A program made the translations under genes and the position numbers. The notes under the pieces are model-generated. The model was not told the DNA's origin and searched no databases. It saw only the letters and a list, made by a program, of their open reading frames with translations. From Escherichia coli (GTDB lineage Bacteria; Pseudomonadota; Gammaproteobacteria; Enterobacterales; Enterobacteriaceae): a stretch of DNA of 64,000 nt. Positions 6,202 through 29,247 of the stretch are shown here, piece after piece. How positions within the stretch are numbered: the stretch's first letter is position 1; the number at the start of each line of letters is the position of its first letter. The stretch lies in assembly GCF_003991155.1 (NCBI RefSeq), contig NZ_CP031297.1, one strand, 5' to 3'.

Positions 6202-6505
6202 GGACAATGTGATGGAAAAAGTCAAAAGCGTAGATGCCGTGGAGTTCACGGCAGCAGATAAGAAGGCGATGACCCATGCGGCATACGCCCAGTGTTTCTT
6301 CATTCTGGCCCAAGTGATGGCATTCCCTTCCCTAGGGGTGGCTGGCGCTATGGTTGCTGCTCTGTGCGGCATGATGCCGTGGTTGACCAAGTTCGCCAAA
6401 GAGGCTCCATCGAAAGCCTTTGGCATGGTGATGGCTTCACTCTGCCTTGCTCCTGTGTACGGGAAACTCTGTGAGCTGGTGGTCCACGCGATTCAGGGAG
6501 CTTGA
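6191..6505 (+). CDS. hypothetical membrane protein
   Basis: ~104 aa from internal ATG of ORF 6122..6505; hydrophobic. Confidence 0.35.
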   Translation: MLHEDNVMEKVKSVDAVEFTAADKKAMTHAAYAQCFFILAQVMAFPSLGVAGAMVAALCGMMPWLTKFAKEAPSKAFGMVMASLCLAPVYGKLCELVVHAIQGA

Positions 6506-6509
6506 GCTT

Positions 6510-7364
6510 ATGGGGGTAGTACGAGTTCCCTACCTCTTGGCTGAGCTGAAAGAACGCGGATGTGCTGATGAATCTGCTCTGGCGCAGGTTATGCAGCCTG
6601 GATGCCGAATTGGAGAGGAAGACCTACGGAAGTTGGCCGCAAATTTAGGGCTTGAAGTTTCTGAGCTGGCACCAGCGCCAGAGAACGCGGCCAACACCCG
6701 GTTCAAAGCAAAGCTGAGAGGAGGTTTGGCCTCCTTTCTTTTTGAGTACGACGGCTGTTTCCGACATGCCGAAGGCTCCAGCCATGCAGAAATGTTGGGT
6801 ATCGAGCAAGAAGACGATATTGGTCTTCCGAGTCGAGCTGCTGACGCCATGCTCCTGGAAAAGATGCTTTACCAGGTAATCGCTCGGGCTAAGTACATGC
6901 TCGGCAAAATCGACAGCAAGTTTGTCAGGTCAGAACAAGCAATCGAGTTCCGTGAGCAACTTGCTCCTGGGATCTTCAGGCCAGGGTACAGAGGTTTCCG
7001 ATTCAAGGAGGCTGCCGCTGGTGATTTGCCTACAGTCATGATTGACGGTCGGAAGTTCAATTGCGTTGCCAGTATAGCCAGAGCGCATGGACTTGATCCG
7101 GTAACGGTGCGTAGGCGCATTGCGGACACAAGGAAGGCCGCAGACAAACTCTCCAATGATGAGTGGAAACTCATCCTCGCCAAGAAAAAAGGTAAAGGGA
7201 AACCCTTCACCTATCTGGACAGGACCTACAGCAACATTGCCCAGTTCTGTCGTGAGCATCAGCTCAACACCAACCTTGTTTACCAGAAAGTCAAAGACCG
7301 GGCTGATAGCGCTGATGAAGAGTTCTGGGGACAGATAATCGAAACATGCAAAAGGAAAGACTAA
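6510..7364 (+). CDS. hypothetical protein
   Basis: ~284 aa from ATG 6510 of ORF 6447..7364. Confidence 0.45.
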   Translation: MGVVRVPYLLAELKERGCADESALAQVMQPGCRIGEEDLRKLAANLGLEVSELAPAPENAANTRFKAKLRGGLASFLFEYDGCFRHAEGSSHAEMLGIEQEDDIGLPSRAADAMLLEKMLYQVIARAKYMLGKIDSKFVRSEQAIEFREQLAPGIFRPGYRGFRFKEAAAGDLPTVMIDGRKFNCVASIARAHGLDPVTVRRRIADTRKAADKLSNDEWKLILAKKKGKGKPFTYLDRTYSNIAQFCREHQLNTNLVYQKVKDRADSADEEFWGQIIETCKRKD

Positions 7365-8323
7365 TGGCAGAAAACAAAGAGATCCCCTGGGAGAAAGAGC
7401 TCATTGAGAAGTACATGTTCACCCTGCATAAAGAGCAGGTGAAAGACCGGCGCTGGCGGACCATGTTGCGTGTGCTTCGCGCATCAGGTTTCGTGCTTCT
7501 CATGATCGGCTTCATCATTTTGGCATCTAATCCGGGTGGGATGCCGTGGCAAAGCGCCAAGGCTGGAGCCCCTCACACCGCGTATATCAACATCCGTGGT
7601 GAAATTGCTGCTGGCACACTGGCCGATGCTGATCACCTTATCCCGTCCATCCAAGCAGCATTCGACAACCCGAATTCACAAGCTGTCGTGCTTCGCATAA
7701 ACAGCCCTGGCGGTAGCCCGGTTCAAGCAGGACGGATTTATGAAGAAGTGAAGGCGCAGCGAGCCCTTCATCCGGAGAAAAAGGTCTACGCCATCATTGA
7801 TGACATCGGTGCCTCTGGCGGTTATTACATCGCCTCTGCTGCGGATGAAATCTATGCTGACCGCGCCAGTCTTGTCGGTTCTATCGGCGTCATTAGCTCA
7901 GGGTTTGGATTCACCGGCTTGATGGACAGGCTCGGCATCGAGCGCCGGGCAATCACTTCCGGAGAGCACAAAGCGCTTCTCGACCCATTCTCCCCTCTTA
8001 CCTCTGATATGAAGAAATTCTGGGAGGGCGTTCTATCGAAAACCCACCAGCAGTTCATCGAACGAGTGAAGGCTGGGCGGGGTGATCGACTGAAAGACGC
8101 CCCAGAGGTGTTTTCTGGATTGCTCTGGAACGGGGAGCAGGCCAAAGAAATTGGGCTGATTGATGGCCTGGGGAGTTTGAACTCCGTGGCGCGAGACGTC
8201 ATCCACCAGAGCAACTTGGTGGACTACACACCAACCGAAGACATCATCCGGCGACTGACCCAACGAGCGAAGCTCGAAGCCAGTTCCTTCGTGCAAGAAC
8301 TCAGCGCTGTGAAAGTTTACTGA
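7346..8323 (+). CDS. S49-family peptidase (SppA-like, signal peptide peptidase)
   Basis: 325 aa; TM anchor then IDDIGASGGYYIASAAD serine-nucleophile region typical of SppA/ClpP-fold S49. Confidence 0.8.
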   Translation: MQKERLMAENKEIPWEKELIEKYMFTLHKEQVKDRRWRTMLRVLRASGFVLLMIGFIILASNPGGMPWQSAKAGAPHTAYINIRGEIAAGTLADADHLIPSIQAAFDNPNSQAVVLRINSPGGSPVQAGRIYEEVKAQRALHPEKKVYAIIDDIGASGGYYIASAADEIYADRASLVGSIGVISSGFGFTGLMDRLGIERRAITSGEHKALLDPFSPLTSDMKKFWEGVLSKTHQQFIERVKAGRGDRLKDAPEVFSGLLWNGEQAKEIGLIDGLGSLNSVARDVIHQSNLVDYTPTEDIIRRLTQRAKLEASSFVQELSAVKVY

Positions 8324-8338
8324 TAGGAGCAGTTTGAC

Positions 8339-9199
8339 ATGACAGAACAAAGTACCAAATCACTACGTCTCGGGGTTTTTGCCGCCATTATTTTGGGGCT
8401 CGTAGGAACCGGGTTCGGAATCTACCAGCTCGTGAAAGAGAAGGATCTGGCGCAAGAGATCGCCAACGTGAAGTCCACGGTCAACCAGGTGAAAGATGCC
8501 GAAGGCGTCACCTTCAAAAGCAAGGCAGAGTTTGAGGCTGCTGTGGCCGAAAGCATCAATAAGTTTGTCGCGCAGAAACAACAAGCCGACATCGATCAGA
8601 AGTATGCCCAGTTCGAGGCGGCACCTGAAAAGGTCGAAGACGGCAAACACATCTATGGGGACCTTGGTGCCCGATTCACGCTGGTGGAGTTCTCTGATAT
8701 GGAGTGCCCCTTCTGTAAGCAATTCCACGACACGCCCAAGCAAATTGTGGATGCCAGTAAAGGCAATGTGAATTGGCAGTGGAAGCACATGCCTCTCGAC
8801 TTCCATAACCCGGCAGCTCACAAGGAAGCGTTGGCCGCTGAATGTATTGCTGAACAGAAGGGCAACCGTGGCTTCTGGGTCTTCGTGAATGAGATTTTCC
8901 ATCACAGCAAAGGCAACGGTGCCGGTGTTTCTGACTTGGCCTCTGTTGTCACGGGTGTTGGTGCTGATCTGGATGCTTTCCGTGAGTGTCTCAGCTCTGG
9001 CAAGCACGAAGATAAAGTTCAAGCTGACATCCAGAAAGCCAAGAGTTACGGCGTTAATGGTACTCCAGCAACCTTTGTTGTAGACAACCAGACAGGCAAG
9101 AGTCAGCTACTCGGTGGTGCTCAACCGGCACAAGCCATCATGGCGGTGATGCGAAAAATGATGATTGAGTCGCAACAAGACGACTCAGCGAACCAATAA
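8339..9199 (+). CDS. DsbA-like thiol:disulfide oxidoreductase, membrane-anchored
   Basis: 286 aa; N-terminal TM, CPFC active-site motif in thioredoxin-like domain. Confidence 0.75.
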   Translation: MTEQSTKSLRLGVFAAIILGLVGTGFGIYQLVKEKDLAQEIANVKSTVNQVKDAEGVTFKSKAEFEAAVAESINKFVAQKQQADIDQKYAQFEAAPEKVEDGKHIYGDLGARFTLVEFSDMECPFCKQFHDTPKQIVDASKGNVNWQWKHMPLDFHNPAAHKEALAAECIAEQKGNRGFWVFVNEIFHHSKGNGAGVSDLASVVTGVGADLDAFRECLSSGKHEDKVQADIQKAKSYGVNGTPATFVVDNQTGKSQLLGGAQPAQAIMAVMRKMMIESQQDDSANQ

Positions 9200-9201
9200 A
9201 A

Positions 9202-9219
9202 ACTTTCACATGTGAAAGT
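9202..9219. promoter_or_regulatory. parS-like 18-bp perfect palindrome ACTTTCACATGTGAAAGT
   Basis: Exact; 14 bp upstream of ORF 9233. Confidence 0.6.
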
Positions 9220-9232
9220 GGAGTGAGAACTG

Positions 9233-9661
9233 ATGATCAAGATTACAACTAAATTGGGGTGCCTTCTGGCGGGGCTGCTTGTCCTGTCGGCTTGCTCAAG
9301 CGTCCCTCAGACAAGCAACGAATACACGAAAGCCCTGGATGATACCAAACAGGTATGTGCTGCCTGTGCTCTGGTTGGTAATGACCTGCTGGTTGCCCTC
9401 AACAAGTCATGCGACAAACCCATAACCCCGGAGACTCTAACCAGCGTCATGAACAGTAACTCGATGTTTGCCGCCATGATGGCAATTAACTCCATTGGTG
9501 GAACCGACCTTTATCAGGTTTACCGTGATGCGGCTATCGACACCCTGCGATGCAATGAGATGGACACTTGGCCTGAACGGACCAAGGTGCGTTTCCAGCA
9601 GCCCGACATGCAAAAGGCGCTGGCCTTGAGGGTTTCTGTCAGACAGCAGAATGCAAATTAA
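9233..9661 (+). CDS. putative lipoprotein
   Basis: 142 aa; signal peptide with lipobox LSAC. Confidence 0.55.
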   Translation: MIKITTKLGCLLAGLLVLSACSSVPQTSNEYTKALDDTKQVCAACALVGNDLLVALNKSCDKPITPETLTSVMNSNSMFAAMMAINSIGGTDLYQVYRDAAIDTLRCNEMDTWPERTKVRFQQPDMQKALALRVSVRQQNAN

Positions 9662-9678
9662 CTTTCACATGTGAAAGT
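9661..9678. promoter_or_regulatory. parS-like 18-bp perfect palindrome ACTTTCACATGTGAAAGT
   Basis: Exact; overlaps stop of ORF 9233..9661, upstream of 9719. Confidence 0.6.
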
Positions 9679-9718
9679 CAGGTCCCTCAGGGGCCTGATT
9701 TCACTATGAGGTGTACCA

Positions 9719-10078
9719 ATGGAGTTACAAGAAGCAAAAAATGCTCTCGATAGCCTTCACCCCCACAAGGCCTCAGCCCCTTTGAGGCTTGTCATCCACC
9801 AGCCTGGAGGGATTGGTGGAACCCCTACCGTAGGGGTGAAAGCAATTCATGCTGGGTTTGATTGGGACAGCAACACCATCCTGATCTACCCGGAAGAGCA
9901 GCTCACCCGGTTGACGCCGGATGAGGTCGCCGCCATCACGAAGTCAGTATCGAAGGGACAGTCCTGGCATTCATATCAGCAGTTCAAGAAGTATCGGGAG
10001 CAGTTGGCCGAAGCCACGGAGGAAATTAATAGGCTCAGGGCTGAGCTGGGCAGGTATCAGAATAACGGGAGGGGGTAA
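9719..10078 (+). CDS. hypothetical protein
   Basis: 119-aa ORF. Confidence 0.45.
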
Positions 10079-10524
10079 TGCTAAAACGCGGAATTATCAA
10101 TCTCGCTGCTAGTTACATCATTGTTGATGCCCTACTCCGGAATGCAGCAATTTGGATCTTTGGCTTGTCCTTCTCCATTGGTGGCACTTACGTCGCTGGC
10201 GAGGCCAGTACATGGGGCGTTTACCTAGCCACTTCTGGTGCAATGACACTCTGTTCTGTCGTAACAGCCTACCTGCTCGTGACCTATCACCGCTGGGGGC
10301 TGATGACGGCCAGGGTCTGGCTGCTATTGAGTGCCTGCCTAAACGGCTATGCCGTCTATTTGAGCAGCCACAACATCCAGTTGGTGGTGGCACTGCTTTC
10401 CAGCCTGTTTATTGCTTTGTGGATGCTCAAGACCCTTGAGCAACCAGCAGTGAAGGGGACGTACAAGGTAATCGCTGATCTTCACCGTCAGCTATGGGGA
10501 ATGTTGAAGGGACAAACACAATGA
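10078..10524 (+). CDS. hypothetical membrane protein
   Basis: 148 aa, ~4 hydrophobic segments. Confidence 0.5.
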
Positions 10525-18149: not shown

Positions 18150-18154
18150 GGTAA

Positions 18155-18176
18155 AAACGGCTATGCCGTTTTTTAT
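18155..18176 (+). terminator. rho-independent terminator
   Basis: AACGGC-TAT-GCCGTT hairpin followed by T-run. Confidence 0.5.
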
Positions 18177-18226: not shown

Positions 18227-18241
18227 TGCCCAAAATGGGCG
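18227..18241. promoter_or_regulatory. TGCCCAAAATGGGCG motif (third cis-element family)
   Basis: GCCC-N5-GGGC inverted repeat. Confidence 0.4.
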
Positions 18242-18311: not shown

Positions 18312-18329
18312 ACTTTCACATGTGAAAGT
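18312..18329. promoter_or_regulatory. parS-like 18-bp perfect palindrome ACTTTCACATGTGAAAGT
   Basis: Exact; 2 bp upstream of ORF 18332. Confidence 0.6.
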
Positions 18330-18331
18330 TT

Positions 18332-19276
18332 TTGGGGTACGGGATGGAACAAGCAATTCAAAGTTACTTGGCTGACGACCGGCAATATCAAGACAGGATT
18401 ACCGCAGCTCTCAGCCAGGTTGAAGAGAAAGGTGCAGAGTACGAAGCTCTTTGCCAACAGCGTGCTCAGTTGGGGATCTGGCAAAAAATTATAACGTTCT
18501 GGCAGTTTCGTCGAGACATCGCCGTTATACGTTCAGCACTAAAAGGCCATAACAGCGATTTGCGGTATTTGCGCCGTGGGAGAGACCAGCTCAAAGAGGG
18601 ATTGGTTTCTCGGGCCGTGAAGCAAGCGATTGACGGTAGCCAGATTCTGGAACGAATCACCCAAGCTCAAGATAGGCTTGACGCCGCATCTCGACTCCAC
18701 GAGAGCAACAAGCGACTGGTGGACATGGGGCAAAAAGCCTTACGTGAAATCAGTGAGGCCTCTTCCAGTATTTCATCAGCACAAACAATGGAGGTTCTCG
18801 ACCTTGTGACTGACAACAAGGGCATTTCCGTCATGTCGTCGATGTCAAACTCCTCGGCCAGCAGTGAAATAGACGATGCGAAGAGAGCTGTGAAAGCCTT
18901 CGCAAATGCGCTGGGGGATCATCGTGACATTGTGGGCTCACTGCACCACTCAATGGCAACTGAGTTTATCGATCTGGGTATGGACTTTGCCGGTTTGAAT
19001 GATGGTTTCGACTTTGGGAGCGTCTTCTCGCTGTTCAGCTTGTCGTCTGCCAGTTCCTCTCTGGACAAAGTAGAGTCTCGCGTTGAATCTCTGATGCCAG
19101 ATCTAAGACGAGCCGCCTCCAATTCGGCAGCAGAGTATGCCCGTGTTAACGAAGAGTTCTTTGGCCTAAAACAACAGGCCTGTTGCCAAGTGCATGAGTT
19201 GCTGGTGACAAATGGTATAGACGTGTCAGTCAAGCGCGTTGAGTCCGCCGTGAACAGCTACAGAGTTGGAAGGTGA
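18332..19276 (+). CDS. hypothetical protein (coiled-coil-rich)
   Basis: 314-aa ORF. Confidence 0.45.
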   Translation: MGYGMEQAIQSYLADDRQYQDRITAALSQVEEKGAEYEALCQQRAQLGIWQKIITFWQFRRDIAVIRSALKGHNSDLRYLRRGRDQLKEGLVSRAVKQAIDGSQILERITQAQDRLDAASRLHESNKRLVDMGQKALREISEASSSISSAQTMEVLDLVTDNKGISVMSSMSNSSASSEIDDAKRAVKAFANALGDHRDIVGSLHHSMATEFIDLGMDFAGLNDGFDFGSVFSLFSLSSASSSLDKVESRVESLMPDLRRAASNSAAEYARVNEEFFGLKQQACCQVHELLVTNGIDVSVKRVESAVNSYRVGR

Positions 19277-19277
19277 T

Positions 19278-19307
19278 ATTTACAGCATCATAAAATGAAC
19301 TTATGAT
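19278..19307. promoter_or_regulatory. 28-bp palindrome family copy (TTTACAGCATCATAAAATGAACTTATGATG)
   Basis: Upstream of AAA+ ATPase gene. Confidence 0.5.
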
Positions 19308-19349
19308 GTGAGGTGATCAACAAGTCGAAATTTATTTAAAGGATAAGCG

Positions 19350-20813
19350 ATGAGCGATATTACACAGCAAATGGACAAACTTGAGATTCCAATCAAGTTG
19401 TCCTTTCCAGTCATCAACGTTAGCACTTTTGAGCTGGGCCGTGCAGAGAGCGTTTTCTCTGACATTGCAAAGAAAGTCGGCAAGCACTTTATTGTGATGC
19501 CATTCAAGAAGCTGCCCGATCCAGGCACGATGAAGGCAATGGTGGACGAGTCCAAGAAGTCCTCCAAAAACGGTGTTGTCGTGTTCGACACTTTCTTTTT
19601 CGACCGACAACGTGCAAACCCGGAAACACTCCCAGCCCTCAAGTCATCACTGACCTATCTGGAGAATGAGGGGATCAACTACATCATCGCTGGCAAAGAC
19701 GTCTTCAATGAAGAGTTCGTTTATCACATCGATCTCCCGGCTATGAGCAATCAGGAAATCCTGAAACTGCTCCAGACCTGTGAAGATAACGTGAAAGATG
19801 GTGGAGTCTTCGAGAGCAACGAACGTGCTGTCATCGCAAACCACGCCCTGGGCTTGTCACACACCCAGATGAAGAACGTCTTCACCTATTCCGCTTACTT
19901 GAAATTCAAGGGTGAAGAATACCTGGGCGAGATCCGAAAAGAAAAAGCTCACATCTTGCGTGATGTCGGCCTCGATGTGCTTGAGGCCATTGATATTGGG
20001 AATGTCGGTGGGCTCGAAAACCTCAAGGAGTTTCTCCAGATACGTAAAGCCGGTTGGGACAAAGACCTTCCGGTAAAAGGTGTCCTTCTGGCCGGTGTAC
20101 CTGGTGGTGGTAAATCGCTGACGGCAAAAGCCGCTGCCGGTGTACTTGGCACTACCTTGGTTCGCCTGGATATGGGCCGTTTCTATAGTAAGTATCTCGG
20201 TGAAACCGAGCGCCAGTTCAATCGTGCATTGCAGACCATTGAGCAGATCGCACCCGTTGTTGTGTTGATTGACGAGATGGAGAAGTTTTTTGGTAATGCC
20301 GATGGCGAACACGAAGTATCCAAGCGCCTGCTGGGCTCTTTCCTCTACTGGCTTCAAGAGCGCAAGAAGAAGATCTTCATTGTGGCGACGGCCAACCGGG
20401 TTCAGTCGCTGCCTCCTGAATTGATGCGAGCTGGCCGCTGGGACCGAGCATTCTTCATTGATCTGCCAAGTGTGGCTGAGCGCCAGAAGATTTTCGAGAT
20501 CCACCTCGCCAAGCAGAAGGCCAACATCGCCGCGTTCGATATGCCTACGCTACTGCGTACCACCGAGGGATACACCGGGGCAGAGATTGAACAGGCCGTC
20601 ATTGACGCGATGTATCTGGCGAACGCTCAGGACAAAGAGCTCAACAATGAAGCGCTGGTGGATGCGGTCACTCGCATTACCCCGACCAGTGAAACTCGCC
20701 GAGAAGACATCAACCAGATTCGCAGTTTGCGGGATCAAGGCTTCTATCCGGCCAATAACTTCGATGTTCAAGAGCAGAATGGCTCTGGACGAAAACTCGC
20801 CATCGAGGACTAA
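19350..20813 (+). CDS. AAA+ ATPase, classic clade (Ycf46-like)
   Basis: 487 aa; Walker A GVPGGGKS, Walker B VVLIDEMEK, SRH ATANRVQSLPPELMRAGRWDRAFFIDLP; ~230-aa unassigned N-domain. Confidence 0.8.
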   Translation: MSDITQQMDKLEIPIKLSFPVINVSTFELGRAESVFSDIAKKVGKHFIVMPFKKLPDPGTMKAMVDESKKSSKNGVVVFDTFFFDRQRANPETLPALKSSLTYLENEGINYIIAGKDVFNEEFVYHIDLPAMSNQEILKLLQTCEDNVKDGGVFESNERAVIANHALGLSHTQMKNVFTYSAYLKFKGEEYLGEIRKEKAHILRDVGLDVLEAIDIGNVGGLENLKEFLQIRKAGWDKDLPVKGVLLAGVPGGGKSLTAKAAAGVLGTTLVRLDMGRFYSKYLGETERQFNRALQTIEQIAPVVVLIDEMEKFFGNADGEHEVSKRLLGSFLYWLQERKKKIFIVATANRVQSLPPELMRAGRWDRAFFIDLPSVAERQKIFEIHLAKQKANIAAFDMPTLLRTTEGYTGAEIEQAVIDAMYLANAQDKELNNEALVDAVTRITPTSETRREDINQIRSLRDQGFYPANNFDVQEQNGSGRKLAIED

Positions 20814-20874
20814 GCGATTAACTTTGTCATGCCGGAACACGGCATGACCCCCGAAACAACTCAGGAGTGATGAG

Positions 20875-21267
20875 ATGAGCCATATCGTAAAAGGCAAGGT
20901 GCAGGTCGCCTACAAAGACAAAGAGCTGCTGTTGAAGGCTCTGGAGGGAGTTGGCGTCGTTGTTGAAAACGAAAAGCTATACCGCGTGGGCGCTGGCTAC
21001 ACCTTCGAGAAATACCCGATTGTTCTGATCGACCAGAACAACAAGGAGCACCGGATTGGCTACAAGGAAAAAAACGGTGTTTGGGAGCAGTACCAGGAAA
21101 ACTACGGCTCTTATGGCCGCTGGACGCAGCAGGCAAGCAGCAAGGTGCAGGATCGCTACATTGCCTTCCACTACGAGCAGCAGTTGAAAGAGGAAGGTTT
21201 CAGCGTGACGGTGAAGCAGCATCACGATGGCACTTTGGAACTGGAAGCTGAGGAAGCTGTTTGGTAA
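20875..21267 (+). CDS. small conserved protein, DUF1257-like
   Basis: 130 aa; N-terminus MSHIVKGKV..LLLKALEGVG resembles DUF1257 as I recall it; own RBS. Confidence 0.5.
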   Translation: MSHIVKGKVQVAYKDKELLLKALEGVGVVVENEKLYRVGAGYTFEKYPIVLIDQNNKEHRIGYKEKNGVWEQYQENYGSYGRWTQQASSKVQDRYIAFHYEQQLKEEGFSVTVKQHHDGTLELEAEEAVW

Positions 21268-21315
21268 TAGCGCCAAGGCAATCAGATTAGTTGAACTTAA
21301 CGACGAGGTGACAAA

Positions 21316-21510
21316 GTGAAAAAGGTAAACATCAAGATCAAGGGCGGCAAGATTGCTGCCGATTTCACGGGGTTTCAGGGTAAGACCTGTGAAGCGCTGG
21401 AGCAGCGTATTCGCCCGGAAGAGCTCGAAGTCGAAGAAAAAGAGCTGAAACCCGAGTACCACTTCAATGCTGGTCAAACCCAGCACGAAACGGAACAGAA
21501 CGAATGGTGA
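21316..21510 (+). CDS. small conserved protein, DUF2997-like (GTG start)
   Basis: 64 aa; MKKVNIKIKGGKIAADFTGFQGKTC; RBS GAGGTG. Confidence 0.45.
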   Translation: MKKVNIKIKGGKIAADFTGFQGKTCEALEQRIRPEELEVEEKELKPEYHFNAGQTQHETEQNEW

Positions 21511-22688
21511 TGAGAAGGACAGGGCGCGTCCCCCTTCTTTTGCTGGTTGGTCTCATGGTCGCAGCTCCTGCGGCCTTTGCCAGTGACTTTGTGACTGGCG
21601 TAATGGTGGGGCAAATGCTCTCAGATGACTCAGGCAGCAAGAAGGTAGAGGACACTGGCCCGGAGAGCAAAACGGTCATTGATTACCATGACGGTCAGCC
21701 AGTTGTGACCAAAGTGGAGGCCTTCAAAAGCAATAAATGGCGCAAACTGGATGGCCCTCAGGGCGGCTATTTTGTTTGCCCAGGTGAATACCGTAGCTAT
21801 TCGGGAAGGCTGCGTTGTCGCGTCCATGATGACGGGCTCAATGGCTTTATGGGCGGTATGACTGATGCTCAGGAGCTACCGCTCCAAGAAGCTCTGACCA
21901 AGTTGGAAGGTAAACCCATCTCCCTGCAAACCATTGAAGTCCACGGGAACAACCTGGCAGTCAAATACCAGTTAGCACCACCAGCACAAACGCACGTCAA
22001 AACTCAGGACCTGGGGGTGGTTAAGCAAGATGGTGAAATGCAGAAGGTTGCCAGCCAACCACCAGCGCTATCCATAGAGACTGCACCAAAGAGTGAACCT
22101 CCCAAGCAGATTGGTGCTGCACAAGACACCGACCGCAATACCAGTGCGTTTCAAAGTCCGTTCGAGGAGGTAAGTGACTCCATGATCGGTCTAATGGATA
22201 GCTCTTTCGTCAAAGTCATAGCGGGGTTGATGCTGGTGTTTGGGGTTGCTAGTGGAATTATGAGGCAGAGCCCATCAGGAATTGTGATGGGGATAATGCC
22301 TGCAATTATGATCATGACCGCGCCAACGGTTATTCGTACCATGTTCGATACAGGCGCGGCCAGTACCAAGCCAGTGGAAGATAGCGGAAGCTCATTTCCT
22401 TTCTTCTTGGTGGCAATAGTGCCGGTGCTGATTTTCTTTGCCTATAGAGCTTTTATGAACAACCGGAGCGACTCCGAAATTGATGAGTTGTTAAGAGAAG
22501 CCCGACGTGCTGAAAGGGCTGAACGACCAAGCAATGAGCCTCCCTCAGTGGATGAACTCCGTGAGCGCCAGCAACAAAACCCAGAAAGAGAACCGGTGGT
22601 TGTCAGCTCATCAGCTCCGGCACCAAAGGTGCAAAAGGAAGAGCCAATCGAAGTACAGCCAGGCAAGCGCAAAATTATTTTGGATTAG
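21504..22688 (+). CDS. membrane protein with periplasmic N-domain and cytoplasmic tail ending PIEVQPGKRKIILD
   Basis: 394 aa; signal peptide, ~200-aa periplasmic region, hydrophobic segments, charged tail. Confidence 0.55.
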   Translation: MVMRRTGRVPLLLLVGLMVAAPAAFASDFVTGVMVGQMLSDDSGSKKVEDTGPESKTVIDYHDGQPVVTKVEAFKSNKWRKLDGPQGGYFVCPGEYRSYSGRLRCRVHDDGLNGFMGGMTDAQELPLQEALTKLEGKPISLQTIEVHGNNLAVKYQLAPPAQTHVKTQDLGVVKQDGEMQKVASQPPALSIETAPKSEPPKQIGAAQDTDRNTSAFQSPFEEVSDSMIGLMDSSFVKVIAGLMLVFGVASGIMRQSPSGIVMGIMPAIMIMTAPTVIRTMFDTGAASTKPVEDSGSSFPFFLVAIVPVLIFFAYRAFMNNRSDSEIDELLREARRAERAERPSNEPPSVDELRERQQQNPEREPVVVSSSAPAPKVQKEEPIEVQPGKRKIILD

Positions 22689-22699
22689 TGGGGTAGGTT

Positions 22700-23047
22700 A
22701 TGAGCAAAAAGCGCATCGTAATCAAAAATGGTGAGGTCTGCGGGTTTGCCGATGAGGTTTCCTTCAAAGGCCTTGAAGTGCAGGAATACAGTAAAACAAG
22801 GGTTTCGCGCATCGTGCCGACGAGCGGCATTCTAATGATTGCGTTCTATGTTATTCGCGGACTTTGTTCAGACGAGTCAAAGATTGCGGCATGGACTCGT
22901 GTTTGGCGTTGCCAGTGGAAGGTGCTGATCGACGGTAAAAGCTATGGACCATTCAGCAGTCGTGCGGATGCTATCTCGTTCGAGAAGGACGAGATCTACA
23001 AACAAGGCAAATTCTTTGCCGATGCCACTCACGAGGCGGCAGTATGA
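22700..23047 (+). CDS. hypothetical protein
   Basis: 115-aa ORF. Confidence 0.4.
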   Translation: MSKKRIVIKNGEVCGFADEVSFKGLEVQEYSKTRVSRIVPTSGILMIAFYVIRGLCSDESKIAAWTRVWRCQWKVLIDGKSYGPFSSRADAISFEKDEIYKQGKFFADATHEAAV

Positions 23048-23472
23048 TGACACGGGCGGCTATGGCCGCGCTGTTATCCGCGTTGGTAATAGGCCTTGTG
23101 TCTGATTTGTCCGCACAAGAGCTGGTGGTAAGCCAGGTGGCTATAGACAAGTCCACTGAGGTGGAGAAAGAAGCTACCTTCCACAACCGCAAGTGGGTGT
23201 TAAGGACGGGGCAGGTTAGTGGATTCTTCATCTGCCAAGGAGATAACAAAGACATTTACTACCGGCATGACAGGGTGGGCGCTCACTGCCAGAAGACATC
23301 GACTGGGTGGCGCAATGTACTGGGTCTCAGGGACGATGTTCCGGAAGTTGAGCTGAGCGTGTACCTGGGGACCGTTGAAGGTGTCCCCGTGAAAGTCCTT
23401 CATCAGGAAGTGGATGGTTACGATCTGAAAGTGCAGTACAAGGTTGCACGTAAAGGGTCAGCAAATGAGTGA
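23044..23472 (+). CDS. secreted hypothetical protein
   Basis: 142 aa; signal peptide MMTRAAMAALLSALVIGLVSDLSAQ. Confidence 0.45.
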   Translation: MMTRAAMAALLSALVIGLVSDLSAQELVVSQVAIDKSTEVEKEATFHNRKWVLRTGQVSGFFICQGDNKDIYYRHDRVGAHCQKTSTGWRNVLGLRDDVPEVELSVYLGTVEGVPVKVLHQEVDGYDLKVQYKVARKGSANE

Positions 23473-24028
23473 GAGTGTGCGTCGGTCAACGCCGATGGTA
23501 AAGATTAAAATCCTGCCGAGTTTCGTAGGGGTTCCCTTCCCGTCGGTGCTACTTATCGTTGCGGGGCTCCTTAATGGCCCTTTGTGGGGCTTTGCCGCAT
23601 TCGTCTTTCATATCGTCATCAAGCGGTACATCTACAGAGAATACCGGAGGTTGCCATATCCGATGCCAACCGGCTCAAGGCCTATGGATGAGTTGAGCGA
23701 GCTCCTTGTAAAGGGGATACCGGAGGAATTTTTCCGGCGGCTTGACGCAGCTTGCAGCTCTGATGCGTCAGTACAAATAACCTGCCCAAAGAAATACCGG
23801 CTGCTCAAAATGTCGTTGAATCGCTATGCCAACCGCGCTGGTTGTTACCCGCAGTTCCGGGAGGGGGATGAAATAGCGATTGAGGTAACAGAGCAGAGAC
23901 CAAGAAAAGCAGGAGCAGGGAAGGGCTTTCCAAGTATTCAAGTTCTGAAAGCGTCAGAGGGTGTTCTGAGTGAACCGGAGCAGCCTATCGAAATTCAGAA
24001 AGATAAGCGCAAGATTATCTTGGATTGA
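23465..24028 (+). CDS. membrane protein with C-terminal tail PIEIQKDKRKIILD
   Basis: ~187 aa from ATG 23465; N-terminal TM helices; tail paralogous to 21504..22688. Confidence 0.5.
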   Translation: MSESVRRSTPMVKIKILPSFVGVPFPSVLLIVAGLLNGPLWGFAAFVFHIVIKRYIYREYRRLPYPMPTGSRPMDELSELLVKGIPEEFFRRLDAACSSDASVQITCPKKYRLLKMSLNRYANRAGCYPQFREGDEIAIEVTEQRPRKAGAGKGFPSIQVLKASEGVLSEPEQPIEIQKDKRKIILD

Positions 24029-24039
24029 GGTGGGTTGGA

Positions 24040-24609
24040 ATGCGGTCATTTTTATACAGAATATTGCTTCTTTGCTTCGTCATTATCGTCCAGATAGGGC
24101 TAATCGCCATTGATGCGAGCCCGTTGGTTGTTGCTATGTTCCTCTCGCTAACAGCTTTAGTCGCTGGGGTCTGGATGGCGTACCTTCATTCCCGATTTTT
24201 GATGGCGGTGACTCCAGTAGTTATCTCTGTGCTAATGGCGACCCTCGCCATGAAAATGTTTGAGCCGAGACTCTTTGTTTCTGCCAGCGAAAAAGGCTGG
24301 TTCCCTTTGTCATTGTTCGTCTCGATACCGTTTTACTTCTACTTGAGTTACTTGCTTGAGATAGAGGAGAAGAGACGTACATTCCGGGCCAATGTGATTG
24401 GGTTTTTGCGTGGAGTTTCGGAAGAGATCCGTCGTTCAACCAGAGAGCATAGAGATCAAGGTGAGATAAGACACGGTGGAACAGAGCTGGGGAGTATTGA
24501 CGAACTACAAAGGGGCGAGGCCAAAGAGCCAGAAGTCATCAGCTCTACATCGGACCAGAAAGAACAAGGCACTCCCAAGCGAGACAAGAGAAAAATCATT
24601 CTGGACTGA
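24040..24609 (+). CDS. membrane protein with C-terminal tail KRDKRKIILD
   Basis: ~189 aa from ATG 24040 (RBS GAGGTG); several TM helices; same terminal motif. Confidence 0.5.
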   Translation: MRSFLYRILLLCFVIIVQIGLIAIDASPLVVAMFLSLTALVAGVWMAYLHSRFLMAVTPVVISVLMATLAMKMFEPRLFVSASEKGWFPLSLFVSIPFYFYLSYLLEIEEKRRTFRANVIGFLRGVSEEIRRSTREHRDQGEIRHGGTELGSIDELQRGEAKEPEVISSTSDQKEQGTPKRDKRKIILD

Positions 24610-24611
24610 AC

Positions 24612-25157
24612 ATGGAACAAATCAGAAAAGGCTTAACCCTCGAATACGCAAAAGAGAAGCGTGAGAAGCTCTTGGCGGAGCTCAAATCAGATGAACACTA
24701 CAGCCAGACTGAAACAGTAGCCTATGGGCACCACGACCCGCTCAGCGTTCCTGTGGCAGCCTGCGATAGTTGTCATGGCCGGGCGCAAATGCAGAAGGTT
24801 ATAGGTCCTCCTGTGCGCTGGAATATGGTCTGCCTGGGTTGTGGGAAGGCGATCCAACAAATCCAGAAACGACCGTGGCAAGCAGCAATGGCGTGGAACC
24901 AAATTAACTTGGGAACACAGGACTACAGACAACTGCCCCTCTTTGGACTTGGGAGTCTGTCTCCTGAATCAGCAAGACAGAGAATGGTGGGAATACGCAG
25001 GAACCTGGAGCTGAGAAAGAGCCTCGCCGGTATCGAGAGGACGATAGCCCACAAGGAAGGTCAACGCCCACCAGGGAAAGAGTACCAGCAACGACTGGAA
25101 GCATATCTGCAATGGGCCATGCTGGCGCTGAGGTTGCTCAAAGTCAAAGCAAGTTAG
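24612..25157 (+). CDS. hypothetical protein with Cys4 zinc-ribbon-like motif
   Basis: 181 aa; CDSCHG ... CLGCG. Confidence 0.45.
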   Translation: MEQIRKGLTLEYAKEKREKLLAELKSDEHYSQTETVAYGHHDPLSVPVAACDSCHGRAQMQKVIGPPVRWNMVCLGCGKAIQQIQKRPWQAAMAWNQINLGTQDYRQLPLFGLGSLSPESARQRMVGIRRNLELRKSLAGIERTIAHKEGQRPPGKEYQQRLEAYLQWAMLALRLLKVKAS

Positions 25158-25176
25158 TGGTGAGAAGGAAGAGAGA

Positions 25177-25206
25177 ACCCGGTACTGTAAAGCGCCGGGT
25201 TTTTTA
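25177..25206 (+). terminator. rho-independent terminator
   Basis: ACCCGG...CCGGGT stem followed by T6. Confidence 0.5.
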
Positions 25207-28498: not shown

Positions 28499-28954
28499 AT
28501 GCCCATGAATTTAAGTATTATCGCAAGAGTCTTGCGCCAATTGGCAATTATTTTTGTCCTCTCCGTGCTTCTTGTGGCCGGATATATCTACTATGCCGGT
28601 AAACAACATCAGCAGGCAGCAATCAACTTTTGGGGTGAGCAATACCAGCCTGATGCCATCTCGACGCAAATTGATTGGGGGTTTATCGGTAATTGGGTTA
28701 TTCCTCGCGGGGGGCCAATTATTTCTCCGGGCATTGCTGGAGTGTGTCCCAATACACCACTTCCCGTTGTGCCTCTTAAAACTGGTCCTGATGGCCGGGG
28801 TTATGTTCTCTGTGGCATTGGAAGTGAGGCTGTCGCTACCAGCTTTGATGTCAATGACATCCAGGATGAAGAGATACGAAACACATTAAAAACGATGTTT
28901 GAGGAAGAATTTGAAAAAACTGTTAAGGGGGATAAATGGACACTCAAGAACTGA
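28499..28954 (+). CDS. hypothetical membrane protein
   Basis: 151 aa, N-terminal TM helix. Confidence 0.4.
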   Translation: MPMNLSIIARVLRQLAIIFVLSVLLVAGYIYYAGKQHQQAAINFWGEQYQPDAISTQIDWGFIGNWVIPRGGPIISPGIAGVCPNTPLPVVPLKTGPDGRGYVLCGIGSEAVATSFDVNDIQDEEIRNTLKTMFEEEFEKTVKGDKWTLKN

Positions 28955-29247
28955 ACCACATGATAGCTGAGGCCTACAGCCGGGATTTGCAAAAGCCTGA
29001 GCTGGTATCGTTCAAAGAGGTGAGTCGCTGGGGGCGTAAGTACGGTTTCCCCGTCGTATGCACTCTGGCCGATGAAAGTGAAGAAAAGCAGATTCACTGG
29101 GCTGCCAGTTTGCTCATTCAAGTAGCCGGTACTTGGCCGCGAGAAGATATGCCGGAATTGCTCACACCGGAACGGGGCTCCGCGCTGTTCAACGATGCGA
29201 TGCAGTTATTGGCGAATGGGCTTGGAGCAGCAAATCAATTGCGCTGA
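28936..29247 (+). CDS. hypothetical protein
   Basis: 103-aa ORF. Confidence 0.4.
   Translation: MDTQELNHMIAEAYSRDLQKPELVSFKEVSRWGRKYGFPVVCTLADESEEKQIHWAASLLIQVAGTWPREDMPELLTPERGSALFNDAMQLLANGLGAANQLR

Follow-up and report, generated by a model that had tools for sequence, protein, structure and literature searches.

The stretch of DNA described here, 64,000 nucleotides of the Escherichia coli contig NZ_CP031297.1 and called the window below, carries a gene cluster in which three neighbouring membrane proteins end in the same heptapeptide, KRKIILD. The window was recognized as the backbone of an IncC (IncA/C2) plasmid, a multidrug-resistance plasmid family: hundreds of conjugative plasmids of the IncC (IncA/C2) type matched positions 19300-25200 with 100% identity, and the window coordinates equalled those of Aeromonas hydrophila pR148 (NC_019380.1). 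The cluster was part of a long co-directional run of backbone genes, labelled in RefSeq as 'AAA family ATPase', 'DUF2997' and hypothetical proteins, and it was present in ~580 of the 72,556 PLSDB plasmid records. No paper on these genes or on this motif was found in the literature. The main result of the analysis was that the motif was conserved as a peptide, was portable between membrane proteins, and strictly co-occurred and co-varied with one gene set that includes an AAA+ ATPase of the classical clade. All genes of the cluster named below lie on the plus strand.

A sequence-only reading of the stretch had claimed that three neighbouring open reading frames (ORFs) share the C-terminal KRKIILD, and these endings were confirmed in the translations. 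ORF394 (21504..22688) ended in PIEVQPGKRKIILD (QPGKRKIILD), with the heptapeptide encoded at 22665-22685 and the stop codon ending at 22688. ORF194a (23465..24028) ended in PIEIQKDKRKIILD (QKDKRKIILD; heptapeptide 24005-24025, stop 24028), and ORF194b (24040..24609) in GTPKRDKRKIILD (KRDKRKIILD; heptapeptide 24586-24606, stop 24609). The RefSeq start codons of the three genes were located at 21555, 23465 and 24040, respectively. When all six frames of the 64 kb were scanned for [KR]3[ILV]3[DE], three sites were returned, all of them C-terminal. The seven tail codons differed across the paralogs by synonymous changes only (CGC/AGA, AAA/AAG, ATT/ATC, TTG/CTG, GAT/GAC), therefore selection acted on the peptide rather than on the DNA. 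A dual-coding role, in which the tail DNA would serve the next gene as a ribosome-binding site or a coupling signal, was ruled out, since the DNA varied synonymously and the three downstream junctions were unlike each other (an 11-nt gap; an overlap or an 11-nt gap; a 2-nt gap).

The largest of the three proteins, ORF394, was found to possess a signal peptide (residues 9-27) and a beta-rich periplasmic domain (residues ~55-158), as the sequence-only reading had described. These were followed by a transmembrane (TM) hairpin resembling the TraA pilin (residues 218-280), a third TM helix (residues ~297-317) and a predicted disordered cytoplasmic region (residues 318-394) ending in KRKIILD. The last 55 residues (22521..22685) made up a tail module composed of an S-V-D-E-L helix, the segment EPVVVSSSA and the terminal QPGKRKIILD. 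In the AlphaFold2 (AF2) model, the periplasmic domain had a predicted local distance difference test (pLDDT) score of 80-87, three TM helices were present, and the tail was unstructured apart from one short helix at residues 349-358. A Foldseek comparison of this model with the Protein Data Bank (PDB) gave no match at E<0.001, ORF394 had nothing significant in Pfam, and PADLOC and PHROGs held no match for any tail-bearing protein. The NCBIfam model TraA_gammapb (NF041281) matched ORF394 with 46.8 bits (E 2e-12), which was under the curated cut-off of 50; the same model gave 45.3 bits for P0018 and 118.2 bits for the genuine TraA of the plasmid. Residues 218-280 were 29% identical to the mature region of that TraA (E 8e-9). 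TraA_gammapb did not match ORF194b or the tagged proteins of distant lineages, where the signature was not significant; by inspection, the latter had the same architecture as ORF394.

ORF194b (189 aa) contained four TM helices, a disordered cytoplasmic region and the tail. Its helices were collinear with the TM core of ORF394, and it aligned to residues 228-394 of ORF394 with an E value of 4e-7; on this alignment the two proteins are paralogs over the TM core and the tail. ORF194a (187 aa from the RefSeq start) was composed of a TM hairpin, a cytoplasmic domain of ~130 aa and the tail. It had only the last ~10-16 residues in common with ORF394 and ORF194b, and nothing beyond the last 10 aa when compared with ORF194b alone. 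ORF194a was thus not the short polytopic protein that had been described. The view of the tail as a duplicated module was borne out, and the module was also portable, being carried by unrelated membrane bodies. All three C-termini are predicted to lie in the cytoplasm, as the earlier reading had assumed, because of the helix counts (a signal peptide and three TM helices in ORF394, four TM helices in ORF194b, a hairpin in ORF194a) and the positive-inside rule.

A further gene, ORF142 (23044..23472), encoded a 142-aa protein with a signal peptide, no TM helix and no tail, which was a paralog of the ORF394 periplasmic domain (BLASTP E 4e-11, 30% identity over 101 aa). It was also observed that this secreted paralog had the conserved Cys pair and the ...VKYQ[LV]A ending, and that ORF142 and ORF194a together resembled a split copy of the ORF394 architecture.

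The tail genes were located directly downstream of the AAA+ trio, as had been noted before. The first gene of this trio encoded a 487-aa AAA+ ATPase (19350..20813) of the classical clade (VAT/p97/Cdc48/FtsH/PAN-like). An active-type module was read from the translation at residues ~240-470, with the Walker A motif GVPGGGKS, the Walker B motif VVLIDEME and the second region of homology ANR...RAGRWDR with its arginine fingers intact, as well as a pore loop, K-Y-L-G-E, at the expected spacing after Walker A. The counterparts of this loop in FtsH and PAN are KYVGE and KFIGE. The best phmmer matches in the PDB were VAT and p97 (E 6e-45); partial NCBIfam matches to PAN, CDC48 and FtsH and a match to phrog_8638 (3e-81) were recorded as well, and the orthologs of the ATPase matched Pfam PF00004. 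When the canonical AAA module was removed from the model, residues 1-200 (window 19350-19950) matched the ATPase domains of FtsH, p97, Vps4 and Msp1 with a Foldseek probability of 1.0. Since these residues matched AAA folds and had no P-loop, the protein was interpreted as a tandem of a pseudo-AAA and an active AAA module rather than an N-domain followed by AAA. The ATPase belongs to the substrate-threading classical clade, and an unfoldase activity is predicted. The matches to the IetA/IteA profiles were partial (PADLOC 6e-21, NCBIfam 4e-18) and reflected a generic AAA similarity; the IteA score was 65.6 bits against a cut-off of 510, and a subtilisin-like IetS partner was missing from the cluster. 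A defence or toxin-antitoxin system of the IetAS (ietAS/sgiAT) type was ruled out by this low score and by the lack of the protease partner.

The second protein of the trio, p130 (20875..21267), was always encoded after the ATPase and was a divergent DUF1257 (Ycf35)-like protein. No Pfam match was obtained for p130 itself, and its family comprised 27 representative clusters among 1.84e9 proteins. One of its 18 aligned relatives was a DUF1257 (PF06868) protein (E 2.5e-26), and that relative matched p130 at E 8e-4; p130 is at best a remote relative of DUF1257. The third protein, p64 (21316..21510), was assigned to DUF2997 by RefSeq and by Pfam PF11211 with a weak, near-full-length match (E 6.5e-4, 20 bits, model positions 8-47 of 47), and one of its homologs was also weakly matched to DUF2997. 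ORF115 (22700..23047), a conserved cytoplasmic protein of ~110 aa, was present in every system and always adjoined a tail-bearing gene. Its alignment had 28 invariant columns across 6 lineages. ORF115 was found in 581 plasmid records and in 0 phage records, and its alignment retrieved 3 loci from the species-representative genomes.

The conservation of the tail was then apparent among close relatives of the plasmid. The sequence-only reading would have been contradicted by an absence of the motif from homologues, when in fact the exact tail was kept at ~40% overall identity: the ORF394 homologs of Aeromonas plasmids and of a metagenomic plasmid all ended in QPGKRK[IV]ILD. Among 18 homologs, the last 10 residues were the best conserved window of ORF394 (0.98), with the TM core and the linker at 0.3-0.5. 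Between IncC and Aeromonas, the identity was 41% for ORF394, 83% for the ATPase, 86% for p130, 78% for p64 and 73% for ORF115. ORF394 was thus the fastest-evolving protein of the cluster, and because of this its invariant tail pairs with the highly conserved cytoplasmic neighbours. The P. aeruginosa 398-kb plasmid NZ_CP017294.1 gave a weak tblastn match at 166271-166582 (28.7% identity, E 4e-4), in which residues 167-263 of the 377-aa form of ORF394, its pilin-like region, were aligned.

The portability of the module was seen in several of these plasmids. The Aeromonas plasmid encoded a second, unrelated small TM protein (ORF146) with the tail, and the 54-residue tail module of this protein shared 67% identity with the module of ORF390 from the same plasmid and 31% with that of IncC ORF194b. 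On the IncA plasmid NZ_CP055326.1, one gene (8889-9464) replaced both ORF194a and ORF194b and combined the body of the former with the tail region of the latter, therefore the two tail-bearing paralogs had recombined. The metagenomic plasmid encoded a single tagged protein. In ~192 IncC records of the pP99-018 type, ORF194b was cut at aa ~146 and its tail was lost to an insertion (NC_008612.1 pP99-018, 6428-10370; window ~24480) carrying a partial VirB8-like gene and genes for VirB9, VirB10, a VirB11-type ATPase and phospholipase D. A search of a 5.8-billion-protein set with the 54-residue module returned two fragments, although this search was weak, since the word index gathers few candidates for a short query.

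More distant loci were reached via divergent p130 members, ORF115 homologs and their contigs. In eight loci representing five tail-motif clades, one to four inner-membrane proteins with the tail adjoined the ATPase, p130, p64 and ORF115 genes. The gene set and the tail were found together in IncC, IncA, Aeromonas, the metagenomic plasmid (L008), two Vibrio contigs (L013 and L022), L014, two Oleiphilus contigs (L019 and L023) and a Pseudomonas plasmid (L024). The tails of the five clades were KRKIILD, VRKISLD, KRRVNLD, GRRLFID and GRLVLLD. Hence, the tie between the tail and the AAA+ module held: the gene set stood beside the tagged proteins in every sampled lineage with enough flanking sequence.

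Both Vibrio loci encoded the AAA-p130-p64 trio, ORF115 and three or four membrane proteins ending in [VI]RKISLD, one of which ended in S. Some of these were encoded divergently upstream of the ATPase gene (L013, 4264-5124, minus strand; L022, 2699-3544 and 3545-4306, both minus strand); they were 253-286 aa in length, with a signal peptide, two to three TM helices and the [IV]RKISLD ending. Tagged proteins are therefore also encoded outside the operon downstream of the AAA trio. A single tagged protein was encoded by L014 (GRLVLLD), by the Oleiphilus contigs (KRRVNLD) and by the 345-kb Pseudomonas plasmid, which was typed non-mobilizable (GRRLFID). The periplasmic domain of the latter protein resembled that of ORF394, as judged by inspection and without a score.

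The relaxed motif was carried by 33 of the 1628 ORFs of all loci examined, and every match was within the clusters. The consensus of 16 tagged proteins was x-R-[KR]-[IVL]-x-[LI]-D-COOH: Arg at -6, a hydrophobic residue at -4 and Leu or Ile at -2 occurred in 16/16 proteins, and the terminal Asp in 15/16. The identity over the last seven residues was 0.90 within a system and 0.54 between the clades. The 40-55 residues before the tag were 75-87% disorder-promoting, and the tag carriers had one to four TM helices.

We proposed that the tail is a system-private recognition tag, which a flexible leash presents in the cytoplasm to its reader, the co-encoded AAA+ complex, and the chances of this proposal were considered to be about even. 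The heptapeptide would end a disordered cytoplasmic leash of 45-100 residues on inner-membrane proteins; the low-pLDDT, disorder-promoting segment before the tag fits an engagement leash. The reader would most likely be a cytoplasmic machine, namely the AAA+ unfoldase with p130, p64 and ORF115, and the tag would couple the membrane proteins to this ATPase. A plasmid-encoded reader was favoured over a host one because the host range of IncC is broad. The tail may be a docking site or a degron-like substrate tag, both of which the sequence-only reading had named. Two versions of the proposal were considered. The tagged proteins may be substrates that are threaded, free C-terminus first, and so extracted or remodelled in the manner of FtsH, Msp1 or Cdc48, and the logic of the tag would then resemble that of ssrA or of MuA for ClpX. 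Alternatively, the tails may be anchors holding the soluble ATPase at the membrane. The substrate version was slightly favoured over the anchor version. The cytoplasmic topology, the physical recognition and the direction of action are the parts of this scheme that we infer. The pilin-like hairpin of ORF394 and the AcaCD-like box described below give a hint of a link with the conjugative pilus or the envelope.

A bolder version of the same idea was also formulated, which we hold to be rather improbable. In this version, the cluster would be a self-contained tag-and-extract machine for membrane proteins: a Cdc48-like tandem AAA+ protein with DUF1257, DUF2997 and ORF115 cofactors would read R-K-Φ-x-L-D-COOH on pilin-like inner-membrane proteins and pull at them from within the cytoplasm. 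The purpose would be either the dismantling or regulation of pilin-type assemblies (pilus retraction, control of the pilin pool or exclusion) or the building of a new envelope structure.

Several results weighed against the proposed recognition by the co-encoded complex. When the tail was joined in a single chain to the AAA N-domain, p130, p64 and ORF115 and modeled by AF2 with paired rows from nine loci, no docking was seen: the tail had a pLDDT of 24-46, whereas the partners were folded at ~70-87. This was a weak negative, since the alignment was shallow, no hexamer was modeled and no predicted aligned error was available. A degron in the strict sense was unsupported, because the cluster encodes no protease; scans against NCBIfam, PADLOC and PHROGs found no protease-like gene among the ten cluster proteins. 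About 1/3 of the IncC records lacked the ORF194b tail owing to the insertion, and pVCR94ΔX conjugated well without the whole cluster, therefore the tag system is non-essential and partly redundant. The co-variation of the tails could also have arisen from gene conversion between paralogs and not from co-evolution with a reader. In addition, a p130 relative at 33% identity (L016) was found in another context, which contained neither an AAA (PF00004) gene nor a tail protein, hence p130-like proteins are not exclusive to the tag system.

Some of these results would suit a reader supplied by the host. If the tail were a degron or a recognition signal for a host AAA+ protease (ClpXP, ClpAP or FtsH) and the plasmid ATPase acted elsewhere, the missing protease gene and the failure of the tail to dock onto the plasmid proteins would be expected. 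The long disordered cytoplasmic segments suit engagement by FtsH or ClpX, and the basic-then-hydrophobic end resembles the ClpX C-motif-2 of MuA, ...NRRKKAI-COOH (PMC12723719). However, 15/16 tails ended in Asp-COOH and not in a non-polar residue, the motif drifted jointly within systems with the same four plasmid genes always adjoining, and none of the loci examined had the tail without the AAA/p130/p64/ORF115 set. A host-specific reader is also less parsimonious for IncC plasmids, which work in many genera, and this explanation was regarded as unlikely. Slightly less credit still was given to an assembly without the ATPase, in which the tails would bind each other or the membrane as a short beta-strand or an amphipathic element and so form a hetero-oligomer. 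Such an assembly agrees with the several identical-tailed proteins usually found per system and with the concerted evolution of paralog tails, and a basic and hydrophobic motif could touch acidic lipids. However, a single tail-bearing protein was encoded in L008, L014, Oleiphilus and Pseudomonas, so hetero-association is not the general function; AF2 gave no structure for the tail, and neither a terminal Asp nor a flexible leash of 50-100 residues is needed for lipid binding near the membrane.

The remaining two explanations were disfavoured by the tested evidence. Known substrate signals of type IV secretion systems (T4SS) are C-terminal and positively charged, and the sequence-only reading had suggested a secretion or sorting signal. 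A signal for the conjugation machinery (the TraD coupling protein or a pilus-assembly ATPase), sending pilin-like proteins to the mating apparatus, would be in line with the TraA-like core of ORF394 and with the AcaCD-like box upstream of the cluster in IncC. However, the carriers are integral inner-membrane proteins with one to four TM helices and not soluble substrates, the TraA signature was not significant in the distant lineages, and the gene set and the tail were present on a Pseudomonas plasmid typed non-mobilizable and on Vibrio and Oleiphilus contigs without adjacent T4SS genes. Together with the normal transfer of pVCR94ΔX, which lacks the cluster, this made such a signal improbable. 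Most improbable of all was a functionless tail that tandem duplication and gene conversion left behind as a neutral by-product. The adjacent paralogous genes, the recombination between them in the IncA chimera and the loss of one tail are compatible with a relic, but a relic does not account for tail codons that differ synonymously only, for a tail kept exact at ~40% overall identity and attached to otherwise dissimilar bodies, or for the Arg(-6)...L-D-COOH skeleton kept across five clades.

C-terminal tags for AAA+ machines are already known in principle. The tag of the plasmid proteins shares with ssrA and the C-motif-2 of MuA (PMC12723719) the form of a short motif at a free C-terminus, the preceding unstructured segment, the portability and a pore-loop AAA+ protein nearby, and with the MuA motif also the order of basic then hydrophobic residues (...RRKKAI). 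It differs from the ClpX degrons in its terminal Asp-COOH (15/16) and invariant Arg at -6, in being carried by integral membrane proteins, and in its presumed reader, a co-encoded ATPase of the Cdc48/FtsH clade without an encoded peptidase. The plasmid ATPase shares its clade with FtsH, Msp1/ATAD1 and Cdc48/p97, its substrates would be membrane proteins held by a cytoplasmic tail, and the tandem of a pseudo-AAA and an active AAA module is reminiscent of the D1/D2 architecture. However, unlike FtsH, the plasmid ATPase has neither a TM anchor nor a protease domain, and the system lacks ubiquitin-type adaptors; its private tag and three small partners are without counterpart in FtsH, Msp1 or Cdc48.

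The joint encoding of DUF2997 and DUF1257-like proteins is reminiscent of the cyanobacterial and plastid Ycf46 (AAA)/Ycf35/DUF2997 association, and a DUF2997-DUF1257(ycf35)-fed7 gene cluster has been described (PMC4284462). The plasmid system differs in that p130 falls below Pfam significance for DUF1257. The two-helix hairpin of ORF394 after a secretion signal is like that of the IncC/SXT-type (MPF_F) TraA pilin. ORF394 does not fit the TraA propilin, which has ~120-130 aa, a leader with a hairpin and a periplasmic C-terminus; its periplasmic domain of ~200 aa, its third TM helix and its cytoplasmic tail of 77 aa are additions incompatible with TraA-type pilus packing, and it is encoded outside the tra operons. 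What is not known so far is a plasmid that encodes a tag-specified set of pilin-like membrane proteins together with a Cdc48/FtsH-clade ATPase dedicated to them and DUF1257-like, DUF2997 and ORF115 partners.

IncC and IncA plasmids rank with the most important vehicles of carbapenemase and extended-spectrum beta-lactamase (ESBL) genes. The comparative evidence defines a compact, testable unit composed of a short tag, a few candidate readers and three positions for point mutants (Arg -6, Leu -2 and Asp -1). Should the co-encoded ATPase be its reader, the tag would represent a new class of AAA+ recognition signal and a portable tool for the targeting of membrane proteins, and would offer a way into the function of the DUF1257/DUF2997-associated AAA+ proteins, which are present in cyanobacteria and plastids too. 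If the bolder tag-and-extract version were true, a dedicated membrane extractase specified by a tag would be known from a bacterial plasmid for the first time, and the widespread DUF1257/DUF2997/Ycf46-type gene association would gain a function.

The absence of the cluster from pVCR94ΔX, the standard IncC model, was deduced from the gene coordinates in PMC4207636, according to which the plasmid lacks window ~14.3-28.9 kb (~14.6 kb). In Dataset S1 of the same paper, the gene order runs from the toxin gene vcrx028 to sul2 and from there directly to the homologs of window 28936-29247 and parA. Along with the AAA/tail cluster, a ParB-like gene and the gene of an orphan N6/N4 methyltransferase fall within the missing segment. 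Since pVCR94ΔX conjugates well without it, the cluster is needed neither for conjugation nor for maintenance under laboratory conditions. The ChIP-exo, RNA-seq and Tn-seq maps of this plasmid are silent on the genes because they are not there, and the same deletion is the reason why the cluster escaped functional work. The deletions described in PMC11459957 concern the multidrug-resistance region only.

The region upstream of the cluster contained several putative regulatory elements. A terminator-like hairpin (18153-18173) was found upstream of ORF310, the first gene of the presumed transcription unit, and an AcaCD-box-like site, TGCCCAAAATGGGCG (18227..18241, plus strand), was predicted before this gene using the motif from PMC4207636. 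The core of the box showed no difference from the AcaCD site that has been published for the region upstream of vcrx036 (window 32848), and the sites upstream of traI and traL were similar to it. Matches with two mismatches showed no excess in the window (39 against 34.7 expected), so that near-perfect copies alone are meaningful. The box was found in IncC only and not in L005 or L008; therefore AcaCD control is limited to motif resemblance in IncC. A parS core, TTTCACATGTGAAA (18314..18327), the site of the IncC ParB/KorB-like protein as defined in PMC10954446, was located between the AcaCD-like box and the start codon of ORF310. Nine perfect copies of this core were present in the window (4541, 5620, 9204, 9663, 14978, 18314, 29358, 32773 and 50192) against 0.03 expected. 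At three promoters known to depend on AcaCD (5620/5654, 32773/32848 and 50192/50255), a copy preceded the AcaCD box by 30-75 bp, and the order was opposite at 18.2 kb, with the AcaCD-like box followed by parS. This arrangement suggests a recurrent promoter layout with dual ParB/AcaCD control. The hairpin, the box and the parS core before ORF310 suggest, for IncC, a single transcription unit from ~18.2 to 25.2 kb, which may be under the control of AcaCD and/or ParB.

The two outer genes of this unit were not part of the core system. ORF310 (18344..19276) was missing from the Aeromonas and L008 loci and had no family match in NCBIfam, PADLOC or PHROGs. The last gene, ORF181 (24612..25157), encoded a Cys4 zinc-ribbon protein that was kept in IncC, IncA and the metagenomic plasmid and was missing from the other lineages; in the plasmids of the pP99-018 type, its place was taken by the virB8-11/phospholipase D insertion. 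ORF181 weakly resembled the Lar restriction-alleviation family in Pfam (E 0.022, below significance). A different insertion was observed in the Shewanella algae plasmid NZ_CP047421.1 (123155-132110), where the match came in two pieces and extended over 8.9 kb rather than 5.9 kb: an ISEcp1-blaCTX-M-15 unit was situated inside the cluster of an otherwise identical IncC plasmid.

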